Source: Escherichia phage BP9. From it: a stretch of DNA of 64,000 nt. The stretch lies in the sequence record PP488543.1; one strand, written 5' to 3'. Position numbers and translations under genes: made by a program. The notes under the pieces were generated by a model. The model was not told where the DNA came from. It searched no databases and worked only from the letters and a program-made list of their open reading frames with translations. Below are positions 5,258-62,901 of the stretch, one piece after another (within the stretch, counting starts at the first letter, position 1; every line of letters begins with the position of its first letter).

Positions 5258-5705
5258 TACTGTAGAGGGAGATTTAATCTCCCTTTTTAAGAGCGGTGCT
5301 GGTCACCTGATCCACGGTTGTAACTGCTTCCACACAATGGGCAAGGGGATAGCAAAACAGATTGCCCGTGAGTTCCCTCAAGCATTGGCAGCTGACAAAG
5401 AGACCAGACACGGTTGCCTAAGTAAACTGGGTGCGTTCTCCCGATGGGAGCACTTATCTCCGAGAGGTATTGTCTACGGAATCAATCTGTATACTCAGTT
5501 CTACCCAGGACCTAATGCTGAATATTTCTCAATCCTGAAAGGCTTTGAGCTAGTCAATGAGGTATTCAGTGGATCGACTTTACCATTCTACATCCCTAAG
5601 ATCGGGTGCGGCATAGGCGGTTTGAAGTGGGAGCACGTAGAGGACGTTATTAACCTTGCCACTTTTGATATGAATATTATCGTGGTGGAGTACAAAAAGT
5701 GTTGA
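5247..5705 (+). CDS. macro-domain protein (ADP-ribose binding/processing fold)
   Basis: VEGDL..LIHGCNCFHTMGKGIAKQI and YIPKIGCGIGG resemble macro-domain NAAN/GGGV and GxYG loops; GTG start 10 nt after GAGGAG. Confidence 0.5.
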   Translation: MIIDTVEGDLISLFKSGAGHLIHGCNCFHTMGKGIAKQIAREFPQALAADKETRHGCLSKLGAFSRWEHLSPRGIVYGINLYTQFYPGPNAEYFSILKGFELVNEVFSGSTLPFYIPKIGCGIGGLKWEHVEDVINLATFDMNIIVVEYKKC

Positions 5706-7014: not shown

Positions 7015-7204
7015 GCTTAAATCTGCATGGAACATCGCTGTGGGTGACGAGATCCGCATCCCAGGTGGTAAAACTATTATGAAGATATCTCGTATCGAGT
7101 ACGAAGGTGACCGTGTATTCCACATCTTCGCAGAAGATGGTCGAGAAATTTATATACAGGCAGGTTCTCACATCTATATCCGTAAGAAAGGGGACGACAA
7201 ATGA
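7001..7204 (+). CDS. hypothetical protein (67 aa)
   Basis: RBS AAGGAGG upstream. Confidence 0.5.
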   Translation: MQMFKLKSAWNIAVGDEIRIPGGKTIMKISRIEYEGDRVFHIFAEDGREIYIQAGSHIYIRKKGDDK

Positions 7205-7530
7205 CAGAGATCATCATTTCAACTGCAGGGTATGTGTTCCTGACAATCATTGCACTGACTATTTTGGTGACAGTGTATGGGTTTGTTATCCTTCCTATCC
7301 TTGAGACATTTAGTTTGTGTCGGTGTTGGAGAAAAGCTTACGGTCCACAACCATGGAAGGACTGGCCCCACCTGGTGCGCTTAGCGTTCTCTTATGCTTA
7401 CGATCACTCCAGTAGTGCATGCATAACCGGATACCACGCCCACAACTGGAGCTGGGAAGGGTTGAGGAAATGGAATGTTACAAAGACCATACCTCTGCGC
7501 ATGTACAAACCTAAAAACAAAGACAACTGA
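7201..7530 (+). CDS. membrane protein (109 aa)
   Basis: ATGA coupling; hydrophobic N-terminal segment YVFLTIIALTILVTVYGFVILPIL. Confidence 0.5.
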   Translation: MTEIIISTAGYVFLTIIALTILVTVYGFVILPILETFSLCRCWRKAYGPQPWKDWPHLVRLAFSYAYDHSSSACITGYHAHNWSWEGLRKWNVTKTIPLRMYKPKNKDN

Positions 7531-7539
7531 TACTTGAAA

Positions 7540-8450
7540 ATTCCTGGCATATCAAGTATAAGGGGGATTTCTAAAATGGATTTCCTCCTTTTGATATTTC
7601 ACCGGACTGGATATTTTAAAATCCTTAGAAAATCAGAAAATAGATCGAAAACTAAAATGGATTTTTCAGAGTAGGCGCGACAAGCTGAATCACTCATCCT
7701 ATCGTTTGCACCATATTCCAGACCACCATTACAGATTTCCCGCACATGCTCACATCCTTCTACTAGAACTTCCCCCACTTAACATTGACCTTTTATGGTA
7801 ATAATATAACCACTATCTTGAAGTTGCGGTGCAGCTTTCCATGTACTCGATCTGTTTTTCGTTTCAAAGATTGAATTTTCTGAAAATTTTTCTCGATAAA
7901 TTTCCCAGTACTCGATCTGTTTTTCGTTTTCTGAATCGGATTTTCTGGAAATCGTTCCAGCTCTCGACCTGAAATTTTTGGGGACGAAATCGATTTTTCG
8001 TTTTCAGAAATGGATTTTTAAAATTTCTATATGGGAATATTTTATGGGATACTGTTTTATAGGAAATTGTTACGGAGGGTAATTAGCATGCTAATTAAAT
8101 TTATTAAATGCGAGGAGTTCTCATTTAGAATTTTGAATGATAATCATTCTCGTTTGCAGAATAACGGGCACCCCCGGTGATTGTCTCCCGGCCCCTACTG
8201 CCCCGGCTTGTTATTATAGTATCACACAGGACAAAGAAAGCAAGAAGTTTTTGCATAAATTTTTAGACGATAATGATAATCGTTCTCATTTCATGCAGCG
8301 CCCATCCCCGGTGGTTGTCTCCCCCGTCACCGGTGCCTGCCGTCCTTTCGATATGTATATTGTGCCACCTGGCGGGGCCGCTGTCAACACTTTTCAAAAA
8401 AAAATTCTAACCTGATGCGCTAACCGCTGCAACCTGGCGGGGCCAGCCTG
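7540..8450. repeat. repeat-rich noncoding boundary region
   Basis: Direct repeats TACTCGATCTGTTTTTCGTTTT (x2), AAAATGGATTT (x3) and GC-rich CCCCGGTG(A/G)TTGTCTCCC (x2); no convincing ORF. Confidence 0.5.
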
Positions 8451-8498
8451 GTGGGCCTATGCTATAGGATAGGTAACAATTGGAGAGGAGGTACAAAA

Positions 8499-8675
8499 AT
8501 GAAAGGTAATAGGATCCCCCTGGAAAATGTAGCTATTAATGACGCTGAGGCTATCACCCTGGTTGAAAAGGCTATGGCGGGAGCGTTGGAACATAAAGAA
8601 GAGTACGAAAAAATGATGGTTAACCTGTCAGGGGCGGCGGCTGGAGAATTCTACCCAAAAAATAATTTTAACTGA
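8499..8675 (+). CDS. hypothetical protein (58 aa)
   Basis: ATG after GGAGAGGAGG. Confidence 0.4.
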   Translation: MKGNRIPLENVAINDAEAITLVEKAMAGALEHKEEYEKMMVNLSGAAAGEFYPKNNFN

Positions 8676-8989: not shown

Positions 8990-9021
8990 AAAAGCACAAA
9001 AGACACTAAGAGGATAAAATC

Positions 9022-9420
9022 ATGAAAACCACTACCTTTAATTTTGACAATGCGGACTTTTCTTTTTCTGATGTCAAGAACTGCCGCCGTGATCGTGGAT
9101 TTTATAAGGCTTATAATCTGGTGGGCCTGGACGATGACAATAATTTGCACGAAGTAGCTGAGATCCGGTATTATGCCGCCGCCAGTGGGAACACTCACTA
9201 CTGCGTTTTTTGGATACACGACAACAAGAACAATAAGTACGGCTATACTGGCGGCAAGGCGAGCGGTCACGGTTATGATAAAGCTAACGCAGCACTTGAG
9301 AGCGCATTAAATGCTATGGGGATCACTGCCGACGGCTGGATCTACGAAGAAGAGTTTTTGTCGGCACTTGCTGACCGCCTGGGATATAAAAAGCACATTG
9401 TAACATGTGCCCACGAATAA
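9022..9420 (+). CDS. hypothetical protein (132 aa)
   Basis: ATG after AAGAGGATAAAATC. Confidence 0.55.
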   Translation: MKTTTFNFDNADFSFSDVKNCRRDRGFYKAYNLVGLDDDNNLHEVAEIRYYAAASGNTHYCVFWIHDNKNNKYGYTGGKASGHGYDKANAALESALNAMGITADGWIYEEEFLSALADRLGYKKHIVTCAHE

Positions 9421-9428
9421 AAAAATTA

Positions 9429-9456
9429 TTGACACGCTGCAAAATTCAAGTAAACT
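9429..9456 (+). promoter_or_regulatory. sigma70-like promoter
   Basis: TTGACA 9429-9434, TAAACT 9451-9456; followed by leader hairpin GGCGGGAA-TGT-TTCCCGCC (9467-9485). Confidence 0.4.
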
Positions 9457-9505
9457 ATACACAAAAGGCGGGAATGTTTCCCGCCAACACAAAGGAAAAA
9501 AGATC

Positions 9506-9901
9506 ATGAATAAGAACGTACGCCGCATCATGAACGAACTGGCAAACGATGAAAAAATTATTGATATGCATTTGGTCAACATTTGCCGCCGTTGTGTAAC
9601 ATACAACAACCGCGCCGCGAAAGCGCGTGAGATGAACGCAAAAGGCACCTTAAAGCCCTTTCAGGTGGTTGTAAAATCTATAACTAGCGCAGCAGGCCAG
9701 GCGCATGACCACAACAACGAGAGCGCTAATATTGATCCGTCTTACGTAATGAAACGGATCCGGACTTGCAAGAATAAAGAGCAGGTGTATAACGTCATAG
9801 ATTGGCTGGACTCCCTGGGCGATGTGGTTTACAATAGGTTTTCTGCAGCTATTGAGATTCAGTTAGACAGGTTGGACGGGAAAGTACTGAAAACTTACTG
9901 A
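9506..9901 (+). CDS. hypothetical protein (131 aa)
   Basis: ATG 9506 after GGAAAAAAGATC; in frame with track ORF 9407. Confidence 0.55.
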   Translation: MNKNVRRIMNELANDEKIIDMHLVNICRRCVTYNNRAAKAREMNAKGTLKPFQVVVKSITSAAGQAHDHNNESANIDPSYVMKRIRTCKNKEQVYNVIDWLDSLGDVVYNRFSAAIEIQLDRLDGKVLKTY

Positions 9902-9912
9902 GTTTATTTTTA

Positions 9913-9936
9913 GATGGCCTTGACTCCAGGGCCATC
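9913..9936. promoter_or_regulatory. palindromic element GATGGCC-N10-GGCCATC (copy 1)
   Basis: 7-bp inverted repeat; loop TTGACTCCAG carries a -35-like TTGACT; TAAACT about 18 bp downstream. Confidence 0.45.
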
Positions 9937-10098
9937 AATAAAGTAAACTAACCACAGTTGAGCGGAAAGGGGCTTAAAGATGAGTACTACACGCCAGCAC
10001 ACAAAGGTAACTATTATCGTTTGCATCATTGGTTACATCCTGGCGCAAATGTTGATGGGTAGCGCCAACGGTGTAGCAAAATTTTTCTTAAACTTTTA

Positions 10099-10126
10099 AT
10101 TGACAAGCTAACTTAAATCAGTATAC
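10099..10126 (+). promoter_or_regulatory. sigma70-like promoter (TTGACA-16-TATACT)
   Basis: Followed by leader hairpin GGGAA-AAC-TTCCC (10140-10152). Confidence 0.45.
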
Positions 10127-10178
10127 TTAAACACGTAAACGGGAAAACTTCCCAAAGCACACAAAAGGAGAAAACACT

Positions 10179-10520
10179 ATGACTACTATGACCGCCACAG
10201 AAAAAGCTATGCAGATCGCCGCGCTGAAAAAACAGATCGCAGACCTTGAGAACAAGATCGATAATTTTGAAATCGACGAGGACAAGTACGACGAAAACTA
10301 TGATGAATGGTTAGACGAGATCTATGGCGAAATTATGATCGGAAACATTTCTTTTCTTCCGTCGCGTATCCTCAAGGAGTTAGATCCTATCGCTTACCGC
10401 TGCGGATTTAGCGACTACATCGACAGCCTGGATATTGAGGACGATGAAGAATACCAGGAATTGCAAACAGAGCTTGAAGAAGTGAAAGAAGAGCTTGCAG
10501 AACTGGAAGAAAACGAGTAA
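10179..10520 (+). CDS. highly acidic coiled-coil protein (113 aa)
   Basis: RBS AAAAGGAG; very D/E-rich sequence (DEDKYDENYDEWLDEIYGE...EDDEEYQELQTELEE). Confidence 0.55.
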   Translation: MTTMTATEKAMQIAALKKQIADLENKIDNFEIDEDKYDENYDEWLDEIYGEIMIGNISFLPSRILKELDPIAYRCGFSDYIDSLDIEDDEEYQELQTELEEVKEELAELEENE

Positions 10521-10531
10521 ATTTATTTTTA

Positions 10532-10555
10532 GATGGCCTTGACTCCAGGGCCATC
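10532..10555. promoter_or_regulatory. palindromic element GATGGCC-N10-GGCCATC (copy 2)
   Basis: Identical to copy 1, directly after stop of 10179..10520. Confidence 0.45.
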
Positions 10556-10609
10556 AATAAAGTAAACTTTACACTGTTAACACTGAACTAATACAGAGGA
10601 GTTAAAACA

Positions 10610-10855
10610 ATGGCCGCACTAATTACCAAGTATTATGCCCCTACCAACACCAAAAGCGCCCGTATCATGGTAAAAGGCTTCGGACGTAAAAAGGTTTACA
10701 CCTGGGATTATGCCTTAGACACGGAAGACAACTACACCAACGCGATGACCGATTTTATTAATGATCTGAACACGCGGATCTTGACAAATTATCAAATTAC
10801 CGATATCGCCTATATAGGGGAAGGCGGAATCTGTTTTGTCGGTATCGTCAAATAA
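10610..10855 (+). CDS. hypothetical protein (81 aa)
   Basis: RBS AGAGGAG upstream. Confidence 0.5.
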   Translation: MAALITKYYAPTNTKSARIMVKGFGRKKVYTWDYALDTEDNYTNAMTDFINDLNTRILTNYQITDIAYIGEGGICFVGIVK

Positions 10856-10866
10856 GCTGGTTTTTC

Positions 10867-10890
10867 GGTGGCCCTGGTAGCAGGGCCATC
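10867..10890. promoter_or_regulatory. palindromic element, variant (GGCCCTG-N4-CAGGGCC)
   Basis: Related inverted repeat after stop of 10610..10855. Confidence 0.35.
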
Positions 10891-10930
10891 TATAAAGATA
10901 GTTTATCAACACAATGAAAGGAGAAAGTAC

Positions 10931-11278
10931 ATGATCAGCGGGGCTAGTTTTATTATTGGCGCTATTGCTACGGCTTTAATTGTAAACAAGATCCAGGATA
11001 AAAAGGAAAGTACCGCCCTTGCAGAATATCCATTTTGGACATTCAACGATAATGAAGATTATATTATAAAGTATAAAAATAAAGAAGGTGACCAAGTAAC
11101 ACCGCGACCGATCCCGGCTTACAAAATGCAGGAAACACTGTACCGCCTGGAAGCTGGGGGCGCAAAAATTGTAGACTTTTGGGGATACGATCACACAGAT
11201 CAGGAAGTTATAAAGCGCCGTATCCGGGCTATTCAGGCCAATATTGAAGTTAGCAAGGGGGGAATATATGAAGATTAA
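10931..11278 (+). CDS. membrane protein (115 aa)
   Basis: ATG 10931 after GAAAGGAGAAAG; N-terminal hydrophobic helix. Confidence 0.5.
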   Translation: MISGASFIIGAIATALIVNKIQDKKESTALAEYPFWTFNDNEDYIIKYKNKEGDQVTPRPIPAYKMQETLYRLEAGGAKIVDFWGYDHTDQEVIKRRIRAIQANIEVSKGGIYED

Positions 11279-11465
11279 TTTTGAAAAGATTTTAAAGCGA
11301 TCTCATGATTCCGAAGAGCTGCCGGAACGCCGCCAGCGGAACAATAAACTGAATAAGCCAAAAAGATTTGGGAAGATCTGGCGGAATCATTATGATCGTA
11401 AATTGCCGGGCCTACTTTTGGAACGTGAACGACAAGCGGAACGATACCGCCACAAAGACAAATAG
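11268..11465 (+). CDS. basic hypothetical protein (65 aa)
   Basis: ATG after AAGGGGGGAATAT; R/K-rich. Confidence 0.4.
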   Translation: MKINFEKILKRSHDSEELPERRQRNNKLNKPKRFGKIWRNHYDRKLPGLLLERERQAERYRHKDK

Positions 11466-11473
11466 CAACCAAC

Positions 11474-11499
11474 GCCCCGCCATTGTGCGGGGCTTTTTA
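11474..11499 (+). terminator. intrinsic terminator
   Basis: GCCCCGC-CATTGT-GCGGGGC followed by TTTTTATTT. Confidence 0.6.
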
Positions 11500-11709
11500 T
11501 TTCTATCCCGCCGATAGCGCCCCTGGTTGGCCCTACAAGCGCCATAAAGGCCCCTACCTATGCAATCCCCTTTATTAACCTGAAAACATCGCCCAGGGCC
11601 GTTTTATGGTGTTAAAATATTATTGACAGTGATTTTATTTAAAGCTTGACACCTTGGAATAGTCCGGATATACTAACCACATCAAAGCAAGAAGGAAGGA
11701 GTAAACACT

Positions 11710-11970
11710 ATGCGTAAATTAAAAAATTTTGATAAAGTTGATATTGTCCTGAATAATTTTTACTACTGCAATAACAAGGCCGTTTGGTGGCGCGATAGTT
11801 CCACCGATAAAGTCAAGGCGCGCTTTCTCCAAGGGCACTGGCAAGGCCGCCCAGTGATTAAAATCACGGGGCAATTGGTAGCGTTTAAAAATTGCCGCCG
11901 TGTTGATGACGTTGAAGAGATTTTAAACATTTTGCGCCACAATAATTTAAAAAATAGTGTTGACAAGTAA
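11710..11970 (+). CDS. hypothetical protein (86 aa)
   Basis: RBS GGAAGGAG; TTGACA-17-TATACT upstream. Confidence 0.5.
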   Translation: MRKLKNFDKVDIVLNNFYYCNNKAVWWRDSSTDKVKARFLQGHWQGRPVIKITGQLVAFKNCRRVDDVEEILNILRHNNLKNSVDK

Positions 11971-11987
11971 ATCTCAATAAGTATAAT
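11960..11987 (+). promoter_or_regulatory. sigma70-like promoter (TTGACA-16-TATAAT)
   Basis: Followed by leader hairpin GGCGGGAA-AAC-TTCCCGCC (11998-12016). Confidence 0.5.
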
Positions 11988-12044
11988 TAAATACACAGGC
12001 GGGAAAACTTCCCGCCACTAACAAAGAAAACAGGAGAAAATATC

Positions 12045-12668
12045 ATGACCACCGTTAACATTACCACAGGTTACAATTTATCTTTCGACGTGCTGACCGA
12101 CGAACAAAAAGAAAAAGCCGTTGAAATGGTCCGCGAAAGAGAAGAACACAGCGGGGATAACTTTTTTCCAGAAAGTGTAATTGAAGACTATAAAGAATAT
12201 GTCTTTCCAGAGTATGGCCTTGAAGATACCGAAGTACATTGGTCCGGCTTTTGGTGCCAGGGTGATGGCGCGTCAATCAGTGCTGAAAACGTGGATTTAG
12301 AAAAATTCTTGCGTAAGGTCAAGTCTTTGACTAAATTCCGCTCAATTCGTCACTTGTTCGGCACAATGCACGATGGCGAGCTATCCGCAAGCGTTGAGCG
12401 TGATCCATATAGCCGCTATAGTCACGAAAACACTGTAAGCGGGTACATCGATACTACATGGCTAGACCTGACAGCCAAGCAAGAAAGTAAGGTTGAAGAG
12501 CTGGAAGAGCTGATCACCGAGACGGTACGGGAGCTATCCCGCAAGGTTTACGTAGACCTGGAGCAAGCTTATCTTGAACAATTTACTACCGAAAACCTGA
12601 TCGGCCTTATCGAGGCCAATGATTGGCGGTTTGATGTGGATGAATATGGCGAGATGACTTTTTCATAA
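12045..12668 (+). CDS. hypothetical acidic protein (207 aa)
   Basis: RBS CAGGAG upstream. Confidence 0.55.
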   Translation: MTTVNITTGYNLSFDVLTDEQKEKAVEMVREREEHSGDNFFPESVIEDYKEYVFPEYGLEDTEVHWSGFWCQGDGASISAENVDLEKFLRKVKSLTKFRSIRHLFGTMHDGELSASVERDPYSRYSHENTVSGYIDTTWLDLTAKQESKVEELEELITETVRELSRKVYVDLEQAYLEQFTTENLIGLIEANDWRFDVDEYGEMTFS

Positions 12669-12757
12669 ATAAAGTGTTGCAATAACCTAAAAACCTGCTA
12701 TATTAAAACTCAAGGGGCAAGACGTTTGCCCCCACACAAAACAAAGAGGAAAACATC

Positions 12758-13138
12758 ATGAAAAACACCACTAAAGCTATTGACACCGTTATGTTTAACC
12801 TGGTTACCTTTCGCGAGGATATGAAAGATCTTCCGCGTGAAACAGTGTGCGACCATATCGAAAACTATCGCAAACTAATCAAAGAGTTGCCTTTAAAACG
12901 TGATCAGTATGCGGCTAACGCCATGCTTAATGCCATGATCAAAAAGATGATCCAGTGTGATTTAACTCTGGCCTATGACTATGCGGGTGGTCGTTTTGCA
13001 GTATACAATCAGCCCGTGCCAGGTATGGGCACCACCGAAGAATTGCACGCGCTCAATCTAAAACAAGACGTGTGGGATAGTATGCCTCGCGTGGTGGTAT
13101 GGGTAGAAAGCGGAAAGATTTACGGCGATAATTTTTAA
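12758..13138 (+). CDS. hypothetical protein (126 aa)
   Basis: TTGCAA-17-TATATT promoter-like, leader hairpin GGGGCAAG-ACG-TTTGCCCC, RBS AAGAGGA. Confidence 0.55.
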   Translation: MKNTTKAIDTVMFNLVTFREDMKDLPRETVCDHIENYRKLIKELPLKRDQYAANAMLNAMIKKMIQCDLTLAYDYAGGRFAVYNQPVPGMGTTEELHALNLKQDVWDSMPRVVVWVESGKIYGDNF

Positions 13139-17485: not shown

Positions 17486-17689
17486 TCTTTACAAAACAGG
17501 GCTTGTTTTTGTCCTGTTTTTTGTTATACTTATTCCACGGCAGGCACCTGGCGACGGGGGGAGACAACCACCGGGCCTGCCTGTCATATAAGAACTATAA
17601 AAACCGTTGACATCTGCCAGGGGGTGGGGTAACATTTATCTTGAAGGGGCAAAAGTGCCCACACAACAACCAGAAGAGAGGAAAACATT

Positions 17690-18870: not shown

Positions 18871-18895
18871 AGGGGCTTAGGCCCCTTTCTTTTTG
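18871..18895 (+). terminator. intrinsic terminator ending the plus-strand early block
   Basis: AGGGGC-TTAG-GCCCCT followed by TTCTTTTT. Confidence 0.6.
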
Positions 18896-19547
18896 TCTGC
18901 TCTTCCCCCCTACCACAAACGGCCCAGCCTGGCAAGTGGAATAATTGACTAGCCATCAATCCCACACACTGTACAAACATACATATAAAATAACTATTGC
19001 ATAATTTTTCATTGTGTGGTAGCAGGGCCATTTTTACACGTTTTTCCTTCCAAAATTGCACGTAATGCAGCATTTGCACAAAATTTAACCTTATGCATAT
19101 CTTCAATAGCTTGTCAACAACTAAAAATCTTTATAAGTCATACACTTACATAACCACAAAAGCGTGTCCTACGTGAAAAATCGGGTGTAACTATAGCCGC
19201 CAGATCTCAGAATTTACGTACGCTCGCCATTCTATAGCCTGCTAAGCATTTATTCCAACCATAGAATAACGGAATAGTCAATACCTGCATAAAATAATTA
19301 TTCGTGTAAACTGCATAACATAAATCAGCTCAGGTGTCAACATTTTTCGTAAACAGTCTGAAATTGTCACGATAGGTTATCATAAACAGAGAAATCTTTA
19401 GTCGTCTAATGTTTACTGTACGTTACTATACTAACTGGAATCATTAGATGACTAATAGAAAGATAAGAAATAATTAACAATACAATTATTTTATCTGTAA
19501 CAATAAGGCAACTATGCAAACGAATGGCATGGCGCGACGGAGTCGCG

Positions 19548-19697
19548 ACATAATATAAAAGCAGTAACCATCACCCCCGTGATAGTTTGTCTGCAAACTA
19601 TTAATCAGATCATAGTTGCCTTATATTTAGTTAATCATGACATAACAAGCAAGGCAACTATAGATCTTCTAATAGTTGCCCTGCTTTTATATTATGT
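19548..19697. repeat. 16-bp inverted repeat pair flanking a ~120-bp core
   Basis: CATAATATAAAAGCAG (19548-19563) and its reverse complement CTGCTTTTATATTATG (19682-19697); flanked by direct repeats ATGCAAACGAATGG(C/T)ATGGC. Confidence 0.5.
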
Positions 19698-19791
19698 CAT
19701 AGATTATTAACTTGCTAATAGTTATCATGCAAACGAATGGTATGGCTTATCATTTCCATGTAAATAGTTAGCTATGTAAACTATTGGTCAT

Positions 19792-19861
19792 GTAAACAGT
19801 AAAGGGCGTGAACAGTAAGCAGGTGAATGGTAATAGCGTGAATAGTGACAGCGTAAACAGT
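19792..19861. repeat. iteron array: 5 x GT(A/G)AA(C/T)(A/G)GT at 15-16-bp period
   Basis: GTAAACAGT 19792, GTGAACAGT 19808, GTGAATGGT 19823, GTGAATAGT 19838, GTAAACAGT 19853. Confidence 0.55.
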
Positions 19862-19865
19862 CAGG

Positions 19866-19962
19866 CATGTCAATTATGTCAATCGTGTTTAATGTTCCCA
19901 GTATGTCAAAGGTGTCATGTTATGTCACTATTGTGTCATATTGTGTCAGTTATGTCAGACAA
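19866..19962. repeat. iteron array: ~10 x (A/T)TGTCA at ~10-bp period
   Basis: catgtcaattatgtcaatcgtg...gtatgtcaaaggtgtcatgttatgtcactattgtgtcatattgtgtcagttatgtcag. Confidence 0.55.
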
Positions 19963-21372
19963 GTTTTTCTCCTCTTTGTCAAGTGCTGCATAAAAATTTA
20001 CAAGCTTGTATGGTAGCATTTTTGCGGCCCTGTTTACATTCAGGAGTGTATGTATAACCCTTGTTGTGTGGGCGTTTAGACGTCTAGACGGTTGGAAGTC
20101 TACAGGTCAATATCTAATCTATTGGCTGCTAACTATATCCCACACAAATAGTAAGAAATATAATTGTTATATGCGTAAACAGTAACCTATGTTATCAATC
20201 CATGTATGTATCGCCAGTGGTGCGCATAATGGGTATTATGTTAAATTGCCCGTAATGATAACTATTCTCACAATGATAGGTATTCTCATTCACCCCGCAA
20301 GATAGGTTGCAAATGTTGTGTCACTGTGTGAACGGCCTCGCCTATTAATTTGCCTCACTGCCTTGATATTTGAGAATTGTTATAAGAATGAGAAGTATTC
20401 CCATTTCGTCCGCCTGGCAGCACTCCAGTCGCTACGGCTCATAACAGGGCAGAACCAGTCCTATTCAGATATTTCTGGCTGGCTCTTCAGGTCTGTGTGG
20501 GAAAAGCCAACCCCTCCGGCGGCGGGGAGGGGGTCAATTAAAAAATTTACGTGGTGTATGAAGCGCTCTTCAGGTAAGGCATGTATTATGGGATGAAATC
20601 CTCTTCAGACAATGATATTTGTTGGTGTGATATTTGCTGGAAAGCCAGATATGACGGGACTCCCGGCGGGGCAGGGGTAGTACAGACAGGGAAAATATGG
20701 GGGATGTAGTTGGGGAAATTGATCAGGTAGGTAGAGTATGGAATATGTTACAGGTATGTTAAATAGGGAGGCTGAATATCTGTAAGATTTGTGTGTAAAA
20801 TCAAAGACTTAAGTGGTGTTGTGGTATTTTCTATAAATAATTCAGGTTTAATAGGTAATATTTGTTTCAATCCACTTTGTGTGGTAAACAGATTCAGATG
20901 AAATTGGTTTACAAGTGTATACATAATATACAAATTAAAGATACAAGAAACCCCCCTCCCCCTTCGGCTACCATTCACCTTTTCCTCTGACTGGTACTTA
21001 AACACTTATTCAGACTCTTTAGGTTATCACCCATATATCATATGGCAGTGACTGGTGTCCTCCGGCCCCTCTTTCGTCACCCGTCCGCTTCGCCATGCTA
21101 ATGCCATAGCCAAATGTTCGGTTGTTCACCCTGTTCACTCAGGTGTATCTCCATACCCTTCAAACCGAAGAGAACAGAAAACCCGAATTACTCGGTAAAA
21201 GAAAAGAGAAGAACTTAATTTTATCAGGATAGGCAAGAATGTCAAGGCATGACTGCTCACTAAACAAGCAAACAGCCATGTGTGGGAGGTAAGTTATTGT
21301 GGTGGTGGGAAATTTAGTTGAAAGATGTGTTATAGGTGCTTCCAGCACTTTAGCTGGGCAGCTAATTGTGTG

Positions 21373-62802: not shown

Positions 62803-62901
62803 GCTAGGTAAGCCCTTTGGCAAGGGCGAGGATTTTTAATCCTGAAAATAGACGAGGTAGTCGTTGAATACATAGGTGGTTCGATTCCACCGCCTAGCAC
62901 C
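62803..62901 (+). tRNA. aberrant tRNA-like element (99 nt; anticodon-loop TTT, oversized variable region)
   Basis: Acceptor GCTAGGT/GCCTAGC, D-arm GCCC/GGGC, loop TTTTTAA, T-arm GGTGG-TTCGATT-CCACC, but ~30 nt between anticodon stem and T-arm. Confidence 0.3.

Follow-up and report, generated by a model that had tools for sequence, protein, structure and literature searches.

What is the function of the repeat-rich stretch without large genes at positions 7540-8450 of a 64,000-nucleotide segment of the Escherichia phage BP9 genome (PP488543.1; the whole segment is referred to below as the window)? An earlier note, made from the letters of the window, took this stretch for a noncoding boundary between two early gene blocks and proposed either a cis-acting analogue of the injection-stop region of T5-like phages or a regulatory or replication element. 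In this study, we conclude that the feature is real, conserved across a phage subfamily, functionally important and previously uncharacterised. Our leading interpretation, which we advance tentatively, is that positions 7830-8445 form a noncoding cis-acting hub that is most likely a transcription-primed replication origin of the T7 type with sites for the host protein Fur. Literature searches found no published description of the locus, and in the rV5 genome paper, the origin was sought by skew analysis without success.

Together with its flanks, the region shares 95-96% identity with the genomes of Vequintavirus phages RudolfGeigy, JES2013 and APECc02. Judged by this similarity, BP9 is an rV5-like Vequintavirus, a myovirus of E. 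coli with a genome in the ~137 kb class, and is not a relative of T5. In the relatives, the replisome is of the T7 type, with a primase-helicase and a DNA polymerase I. Capture of the region from the host was rejected because no match to it was found among 5,426 E. coli genomes.

A conserved noncoding locus that tolerates few insertions

Comparison with related complete genomes showed that the region is noncoding and strongly conserved in Vequintaviruses and that its core is kept in other genera. In an alignment of eight Vequintaviruses, which are 4-14% divergent over the stretch, approximately 55% of the columns are invariant in the flanking genes, whereas the proportion is 72-90% at 7860-8139 and 88-100% at 8140-8419; for 7843-8445 taken together, it is 75-100%. 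Upstream, a conserved block at 7566-7670 (95% invariant columns at 7620-7659) contains one GATC and is followed by a variable spacer at 7671-7828 (28-53% at 7660-7819), which is intergenic in the related phage Bas54. According to a blastn search of all phage records, ~60-80 nt (window 8100-8191) are kept at 80-90% identity in other genera, and the surroundings have diverged. These genera are Mydovirus (phages of Klebsiella and Proteus), Seunavirus (PVP-SE1, GAP31) and Certrevirus (phiTE, CR8), and the core also occurs in phages of Erwinia, Serratia and Enterobacter. The order of the parts is the same across genera: CTCGATC-type iterons, an A6T6 tract, one to three palindromic boxes, a GC-rich element and a sigma-70 promoter on the opposite strand. 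Within a complete genome, the iterons occur at this locus only, the GC-rich element occurs three times, and the box is confined to this locus and the terminal repeat.

No open reading frame (ORF) of at least 100 amino acids (aa) lies between 7531 and 8498. Small ORFs have been annotated here in many GenBank records, and none of them behaves like a gene, which bears out the description of the stretch as noncoding. In the 92-aa ORF (8137-8415), the 22 variable sites are split 8:6:8 by codon position and show no third-position bias, the ATG is not preceded by a Shine-Dalgarno sequence, and a TAA occurs at codon 8 in a 137-kb IMG/VR Vequintavirus contig. The end of this ORF is moved by a poly-A tract at 8396-8404, the length of which varies among the relatives and shifts the frame, resulting in four different C-termini. 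The frame is closed in seven of the 13 lineages that keep the DNA core. The 34-aa ORF (7978-8082) starts with TTG, has variable sites split 7:5:9 and contains an in-frame TAG at codon 29 in three of the eight relatives. Stops interrupt the minus-strand ORF 7778-7599 in six of the eight relatives, and the small plus-strand ORF from 7576 is stopped at codon 8 in phage Mangalyan, where the downstream DNA is still conserved (alignment read by eye). Annotators disagree, with approximately 40% of the 60 records listed calling nothing here. By these tests of sequence variation, the annotated ORFs of 34 and 92 aa fail as coding sequences, and the frame is not the same from one genus to another.

A tRNA identity was rejected despite the tRNA-Met label in a Klebsiella phage record, as none of the copies of the conserved core is recognised as a tRNA by ARAGORN. 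In that record (vB_Kpn_K45PH128C2; positions 2511-2583 of our contig L005), the Fur-box and hairpin core is annotated as tRNA-Met and the adjacent stretch as tRNA-Ile; because ARAGORN does not find a tRNA at this core, the label is probably a mis-annotation. A search of Rfam 15 produced no family match and just two chance-level hits, which were far under the gathering scores.

The functional importance of the locus is indicated by the saturating mariner mutagenesis of Bas54 using HIDEN-SEQ (preprint, 10.1101/2025.11.20.689424). We identified Bas54 as phage MaxBurger (MZ501093.1), whose sequence is 96.9% identical to that of BP9 over this region, and our mapping of its genes was confirmed by matching the numbers of TA sites in the MaxBurger sequence. 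Upstream of the locus, bas54_0099 (the gene at 7201-7530) was hit at 18 of 21 TA sites and classified as non-essential. Over the iterons, bas54_0100 (7829-7972) was hit at one of three sites with a mean count of 5, compared with ~170-230 in the neighbours, and was not classified. None of the 11 sites was hit in the AT-rich bas54_0101 (7978-8082), which was classified as essential, and bas54_0102 (8137-8415), which covers the Fur boxes, hairpins and promoters described below, was hit at five of 15 sites with a mean count of 12.7, or ~16-fold lower, and was classified as having a strong fitness defect. Insertions were again frequent in bas54_0103 (the gene at 8499-8675; 12 of 14 sites, intermediate) and in the next gene, bas54_0104 (13 of 13 sites, non-essential). 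The insertion-poor interval coincides with the conserved noncoding block, and the depletion stands alongside the failed coding tests, although cis and trans action are not separable by the design. The general proposal of a cis-acting regulatory or replication element is upheld by a stretch that is noncoding, constrained above the flanking genes and depleted of insertions in Bas54.

Iterons, predicted promoters, Fur boxes and hairpins

The repeats listed by the earlier note are all present and non-random, with coordinates that are slightly shifted, and the locus additionally contains two canonical Fur boxes, predicted minus-strand promoters, an AT-rich trough and conservation across genera. The direct repeat TACTCGATCTGTTTTTCGTTT(T), found at 7844-7864 and 7909-7930, is part of a 47-nt unit present three times on the plus strand (7833-7879, 7898-7944 and 7972-8018; spacing 65 and 74 nt). 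In each of these iterons, CTCGA(T/C)C is accompanied by a GAAATSGATTTT-like motif. The 22-mer core of the iterons is unique to the locus in the 136-kb EdH4 genome, and CTCGATC-related repeats are found at the equivalent position in phiTE and a Klebsiella phage. The motif AAAATGGATTT, which was noted three times, is exact at 7573 and 7654 and matches at 10 of 11 positions at 8007; a looser form, RAAATSGATTTT, is enriched in the window, with 12 strand-matches where 3.0 are expected, and seven of the 12 fall in the region, at four sites (7573, 7654, 7986 and 8007). The iterons run into an AT-rich trough at 7970-8149 (GC content 0.23-0.32), which is a candidate DNA-unwinding element with an insertion-free core at ~8019-8080. 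A perfect palindrome, TAATTAGCATGCTAATTA, read from the sequence at 8080-8097, is nearly invariant in the eight Vequintaviruses. A repeat family search also found a direct repeat, TGCnACCTGGCGGGGCC, with two plus-strand copies at 8363-8379 and 8428-8444.

Three tandem sigma-70 promoters are predicted on the minus strand, and all three would point into the AT trough. The promoter P_C2 (8359-8394) consists of AAAAGTG-TTGACA, a 17-nt spacer and (TG)CACAAT, with a promoter scan score of 10/12 plus TG, and it reproduces the putative early-promoter motif of the phage, AAAAGTGTTGACA, perfectly at 13/13 positions. With at most two mismatches allowed, 16 copies of this motif were counted in the window, where 3.2 would be expected, and the plus-strand copies include those at 5695, 8954, 9422, 11953, 15436, 16064 and 17600. 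Within the plus-strand block, only two copies face backward, namely, P_C2 and one in the terminal region. Because the motif matches the early-promoter consensus for Certrevirus (PMC7344957), it is common to the subfamily. Its presence on both sides of the region (5695; 8954, 9422 and others) means that nothing marks two different early blocks. The promoter P_C1 (8213-8243; TTGCTT, 19-nt spacer, TATAAT) was read from the sequence and has equivalents in other genera (TTGCAA-17-TATATT, TTGATC-16-TATTAT and TTGACC-17-GATAAT). The promoter-like P3 (8404-8432; TTGCAG, 17-nt spacer, TAGAAT) was recognised by eye. A minus-strand terminator was not found at the locus.

The palindromic boxes are identical in sequence to bacterial Fur operators and are predicted Fur sites. 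Fur box 1 (TTGAATGATAATCATTCTCGTT, 8133-8154), the most conserved part across genera, has one mismatch to AATGAKAATCATTMTCATT, and its positions 8133-8151 match 15 of 19 positions of the classical Fur consensus GATAATGATAATCATTATC. Fur box 2 (GATAATGATAATCGTTCTCATT, 8269-8290) has one mismatch to the palindromic variant, and its positions 8269-8287 match 17 of 19 positions of the same consensus, a level of match for which 0.03 occurrences are expected in the window. A degenerate box 0 (AATGCGAGGAGTTCTCATT, 8107-8125) has five mismatches to the box consensus; at this position, Klebsiella phages have a good box, AATGAGAAGCATTCTTATT, and phiTE has two further boxes. Fur-like boxes also occur in the terminal repeat at 20254, 20272 and 20387 (20254-20405), and the last of these is ~9-10 nt from the physical end at 20414; in EdH4, boxes lie at positions 10-28 and 126-144 of the 458-bp repeat. 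Beyond the boxes, the locus and the terminal noncoding region share no similarity. The commonest variant in related and unrelated viral copies, AATGAGAATCATTCTCATT, is one mismatch from each window box and is present exactly in at least 120 bacterial contigs of many phyla, compared with ~2-4 by chance according to our estimate. Among 74 such loci where an ORF of 150 aa or more begins no farther than 200 nt away, a minimum of 19 encode TonB-dependent receptors, FTR1 permeases or Fe3+ binding proteins; six representative iron-uptake neighbours were confirmed by Pfam, plus one FeoB.

Arrays of Fur boxes in repeat-rich noncoding DNA were also observed in unrelated viral contigs from IMG/VR (L016, the family of L017, L029, L031 and L046, L020, L024, L027 and L036) and in a distant Vequintavirinae relative (L039). 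In L016, two boxes are situated between three DnaA boxes, beside seven 10-bp iterons and ~2 kb from a Toprim plus DnaB_C primase-helicase; in the L017 family, the box is next to two DnaA boxes and beside a Toprim/AAA_25 protein. A phage-encoded box binder is unsupported because no protein is shared between the unrelated box-carrying viral contigs and a complete Vequintavirus, and a host factor is the simpler binder. It is conceivable, although we consider it doubtful, that beyond its role as an iron-responsive repressor, host Fur contributes to phage replication origins as a structural component or a roadblock, in a design that would recur in unrelated lineages, with its boxes mixed among DnaA boxes, iterons and AT-rich DNA beside primase-helicase genes; as such a factor, Fur would perhaps also take part in the processing of genome ends.

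Upstream of each canonical box on the minus strand lies a unit with a G-rich 5′ hairpin. Unit C1 (8152-8207) contains the invariant GGAGACAAnCACCG, and the paralogous unit C2 (8292-8352; -20.1 kcal/mol, z = -1.5) holds the ~35-bp element at 8306-8341; in the eight phages, all columns at 8300-8339 are invariant. The GC-rich motif CCCCGGTGRTTGTCTCCC is indeed present twice, exactly, at 8172 and 8306 (0.04 expected), and a third copy with one mismatch is inverted at 17559-17576. The reported inverted recurrence of the ~35-bp element is likewise genuine, with 8307-8343 aligning to 17575-17537 over 39 nt (92% identity, two gaps of one base each, E 5e-8); an ungapped search with three mismatches allowed overlooks this copy. 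The third unit, C3 (17537-17587, plus strand), is thus in the opposite orientation, lies between a terminator and an early promoter and has no Fur box. The C3 hairpin has a folding energy of -25.9 kcal/mol (z = -2.9; none of 200 shuffles as stable) and is preceded by TTGTTT-16-TATACT, which ends 6 nt before the stem. At unit C1, the CC at 8174-8175 is GG in RudolfGeigy, naswa, ECML-10, EdH4 and L037, and GG matches the C3 copy (GCCCGGTG); this recurrent swap suggests gene conversion between the copies of the unit.

In every genus examined, the arrangement is a -10 element, 6 nt, the hairpin, ~8 nt and a Fur box. The stem, which in phiTE is AUAGCGGG...CCCGCUAU, encloses ~45 nt with the invariant GGAGACAAnCACCG. 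In a 13-sequence alignment, the outer stem is 93% paired, compared with 31-57% when the partners are slid, and it includes two compensatory pairs and eight G-U cells that are valid on the minus strand only. Because the covariation is weak and the stability is mixed, these observations suggest at most that the hairpins have a role at the RNA level. A plus-strand small RNA repressed by Fur is unlikely: in several genera, its candidate -10 element does not have the conserved A at its second position, a terminator is missing downstream, and the G-U pairs are confined to the minus strand. The pseudo-ToxI locus of phiTE was rejected as a counterpart because it lies elsewhere, at 106.7 kb. In other genera, the hairpin and Fur-box unit is followed by a second conserved minus-strand unit that is absent from the window (phiTE, L003, 2600-2780; Salmonella R7, L004, 160-330; the Klebsiella phage, L005, 2640-2800). 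With a putative sigma-70 promoter of its own and the sequence CGCCACCCCACGGCGAAAAGGCGGGGCTAACGTACCGGG...GGTCGGAAGGTG, it looks like another small structured RNA.

A possible transcription-primed origin and its competitors

Phages of the rV5 type have direct terminal repeats of 458-459 bp (PMC7471380, PMC6563267), and the EdH4 record carries an exact 458-bp repeat at both ends. Position 1 of EdH4 maps to window 20414 in reverse orientation, and the left physical end therefore falls inside the window, within a gene-free 2.3-kb stretch. The distance from the 7540-8450 region to this end is 12.0-12.9 kb; relative to the genome length, the region lies 8.3-9.0% in from the end. The genes from window 1 to ~18.8 kb, downstream of the DNA polymerase gene, are all on the plus strand and are thus transcribed towards the left end. 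A physical end at a Fur box, to which the phiWec189 record (LC739538.1) might point because it begins beside Fur box 2, was rejected: the two ends of this record overlap by ~155 nt, from Fur box 2 to Fur box 1, which marks the "linear complete genome" as a circular assembly opened within the locus.

The interpretation of a cis-acting hub is based on the unique iterons, the insertion-free AT core, promoters aimed inward, noncoding constraint and a T7-type replisome. An origin is further favoured by the constant order of the parts across genera and by the unrelated viral contigs, in several of which the Fur boxes alternate with DnaA boxes and short iterons close to primase-helicase genes. We propose that host RNA polymerase would start at the tandem early-type promoters, backwards relative to the surrounding genes, and would head away from the nearby left end towards the bulk of the chromosome. 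The transcripts would open with the G-rich hairpin, cross one or two Fur boxes ~55 nt downstream, enter the 180-bp AT-rich stretch and then reach the three iterons. The RNA, or the opening that it causes, may let the T7-like primase-helicase and the Pol I-type polymerase begin DNA synthesis. Fur bound to the boxes could pause or stop the polymerase and thereby set where or whether synthesis starts; at approximately +55, it might be a roadblock that sets the 3′ end of the RNA or, alternatively, an iron gate. The partial insertion tolerance of 8137-8415 would follow from the duplication of C1 and C2. Promoter firing, Fur binding and the start of replication at this locus are inferred from its sequence.

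Several observations weigh against an origin of this type. The origins of T7 and T4 are individually dispensable, unlike the insertion-intolerant locus described here, and we know of no role for Fur at any origin. No gene for an initiator overlaps or adjoins the iterons, and the GC skew at the locus follows only the direction of transcription. With respect to the promoters, the 19-nt spacer of P_C1 is longer than usual, and P3 was seen by eye only and was not reported by the strict promoter scan. With respect to the hairpins, 40-56 of 500 shuffles reach the observed stem values, the RNAalifold consensus is weak (-5.2 kcal/mol), and the C1 hairpin is no more stable than shuffles (z = +0.75). 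In addition, the Bas54 counts are gene-level values from a preprint in which the design mixes cis and trans function, and the anti-CRISPR marker of the transposon, which must be expressed for a mutant to survive, may be expressed poorly where transcription converges.

These weaknesses require that other explanations be considered. The locus might give rise to a noncoding antisense RNA that is essential, or to a pair of paralogous small RNAs, acting in trans through binding of a protein or RNA by the loop GGAGACAAnCACCG, with the DNA repeats being secondary. This is an explanation that we regard as unlikely, although the fixed spacing between the -10 element and the hairpin in every genus, the G-U pairs and the two compensatory changes of the minus strand, and the C3 copy, which has its own -10 element elsewhere and folds well, are all in its favour, and the partial insertion tolerance of the duplicated C1/C2 part fits redundancy. 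However, a terminator and an Rfam family are lacking, the covariation is weak, the segment free of insertions is not formed by the hairpins themselves but by the AT-rich DNA that lies downstream of them, and the conserved iterons and Fur boxes are features of the DNA level. Rather than an origin, the locus might also be a transcriptional switch: Fur-Fe2+ would govern transcription in the backward direction, which would either run into rightward early transcription or insulate it, thus tying the programme of the phage to host iron. The close matches of the boxes to the Fur consensus, the iron-uptake genes beside exact bacterial copies of the palindrome and the lack of a phage protein common to the box-carrying contigs would agree with such a switch, which we nonetheless judge distinctly improbable: a purely iron-sensing site is not expected to be indispensable in rich medium, the iterons and the essential AT-rich core are left unexplained, and the similar boxes ~10 nt from the genome end suggest a role at the DNA level.

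The two remaining explanations meet stronger objections. Real micro-proteins might be encoded by the small ORFs, for which annotations exist in rV5, FV3 and the BASEL phages; the 92-aa ORF has an entry in PHROG (14993), and its frame is open in six of the 13 lineages. In addition to the premature stops, frameshifts, poorly equipped starts and inconsistent annotation described above, the Salmonella and Klebsiella relatives keep the DNA core and lose the frame, and past the first 17 codons, the translations of the window and phiTE are unrelated (compared by eye), which makes coding very unlikely. An injection-stop or two-step transfer signal of the T5 type, which would end a first-entering segment of 12 kb, is supported by a region that lies 8.3-9.0% of the genome length from the left physical end and is repeat-rich, palindromic, noncoding and functionally important. 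The first-step segment of T5 is 8% of its genome, a figure that the position of our region incidentally resembles. The terminus is indeed inside the window, as the earlier analogy required, but the region is far beyond the inner edge of the 458-bp repeat of a Vequintavirus myovirus, which is not the ~10-kb repeat of T5, and does not lie at a repeat boundary. Moreover, the DnaA box TTATNCACA and the IHF consensus WATCAANNNNTTR are both absent from 7500-8520, early promoters are predicted on both sides, and to our knowledge, stepwise injection has not been described in this phage group. We therefore consider the injection-stop analogy hardly credible, and a transcription-primed origin remains our preferred, if tentative, reading of the locus.

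Genomic context, significance and comparison with known systems

Additional observations were made elsewhere in the window. At 18880-21200, two gene blocks converge on the gene-free, repeat-rich 2.3 kb that contains the terminal repeat (~19957-20414), runs of ATGTCA repeats (19860-19960) and a backward early-type promoter sequence (19347-19335). According to the Bas54 preprint (10.1101/2025.11.20.689424), no insertions were recovered in the ~2-kb intergenic region with the terminal repeat. For the plus-strand genes at 9000-13000, the GC skew drops to 0.04-0.07 and the AT skew rises to ~0.16, compared with the plus-strand genes to the left and right (GC skew 0.09-0.17), and the shift starts just past the noncoding region; it could reflect a different origin of these genes or an effect related to replication. 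ARAGORN also reports a 99-nt tRNA-like gene with a four-base anticodon (atcc) at 62803-62901, inside a tRNA cluster (Arg, Ser, Thr, Met and Pro), and the EdH4 record labels its counterpart tRNA-OTHER. This gene could be a frameshift-suppressor-like tRNA or a false call.

Phages of the rV5 type are among the coliphages with the broadest host range and are used in therapy cocktails. The locus provides a concrete origin candidate of ~600 bp for these phages and recasts two genes, ranked as essential or important in a transposon screen and without an assigned function, as probable noncoding DNA or RNA. In phage engineering, the locus should be kept intact, and the annotated ORFs should not be counted as proteins. 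Furthermore, canonical host Fur boxes are conserved across a phage subfamily, both in the hub and beside the genome end, which raises the possibility that a lytic phage couples its replication, or its early transcription, with the iron status of the host or with Fur itself.

Each of the known systems with which the locus can be compared shares some of its parts. The T5 injection-stop region is likewise a repeat- and palindrome-rich noncoding stretch ~8-9% from one end; however, T5 belongs to another virus family, Demerecviridae, and its ~10-kb terminal repeats carry pre-early genes, whereas the phages considered here have a 458-bp repeat and a locus without DnaA or IHF sites. Bacterial Fur operators (GATAATGATAATCATTATC) are matched at 17/19 and 15/19 positions, and the exact phage-type palindrome is found upstream of iron-uptake genes across phyla. 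Unlike in those operators, the boxes are ~55 nt downstream of the predicted start and not over the -35 and -10 elements, and they are located in a noncoding hub of a lytic phage and beside its genome end, not before an iron gene. Iteron origins, such as lambda ori and those of plasmids pSC101 and P1, also have direct repeats next to an AT-rich region, and arrays of the 19-bp palindrome with a period of ~26-30 bp in relatives and unrelated contigs strengthen the likeness; in contrast, no initiator gene adjoins the locus, and its palindromes are predicted sites for host Fur and not for an O-type phage protein.

The R-loop origins (T4 oriF/oriG, ColE1 RNA II and mitochondrial LSP-CSB) resemble the locus in having a promoter, a G-rich transcribed segment and an easily melted region, and in C1, C2 and C3, the predicted RNA would have the sequence of the G-rich strand. 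The G-richness is only moderate here, and no RNase H or MotA-type features were identified. The primary origin of T7, to which the locus bears a close parallel, consists of two promoters followed by AT-rich DNA, lies in the leftmost 15% of a genome that has short terminal repeats, and is transcribed away from the left end. Compared with this origin, which can be deleted from T7, the BP9 locus is insertion-intolerant; its predicted promoters are of the host sigma-70 type because the phage is without an RNA polymerase of its own, and iterons, G-rich 5′ hairpins and Fur boxes are added. The locus nevertheless shares with the T7 origin (phi1.1A/1.1B and the AT-rich region) putative tandem promoters that lead into an AT-rich stretch, a location within the first 10-15%, counted from the left, of a linear genome whose direct terminal repeats are short, predicted transcription away from the left end, and a gp4-type primase-helicase together with a Pol I-type polymerase.

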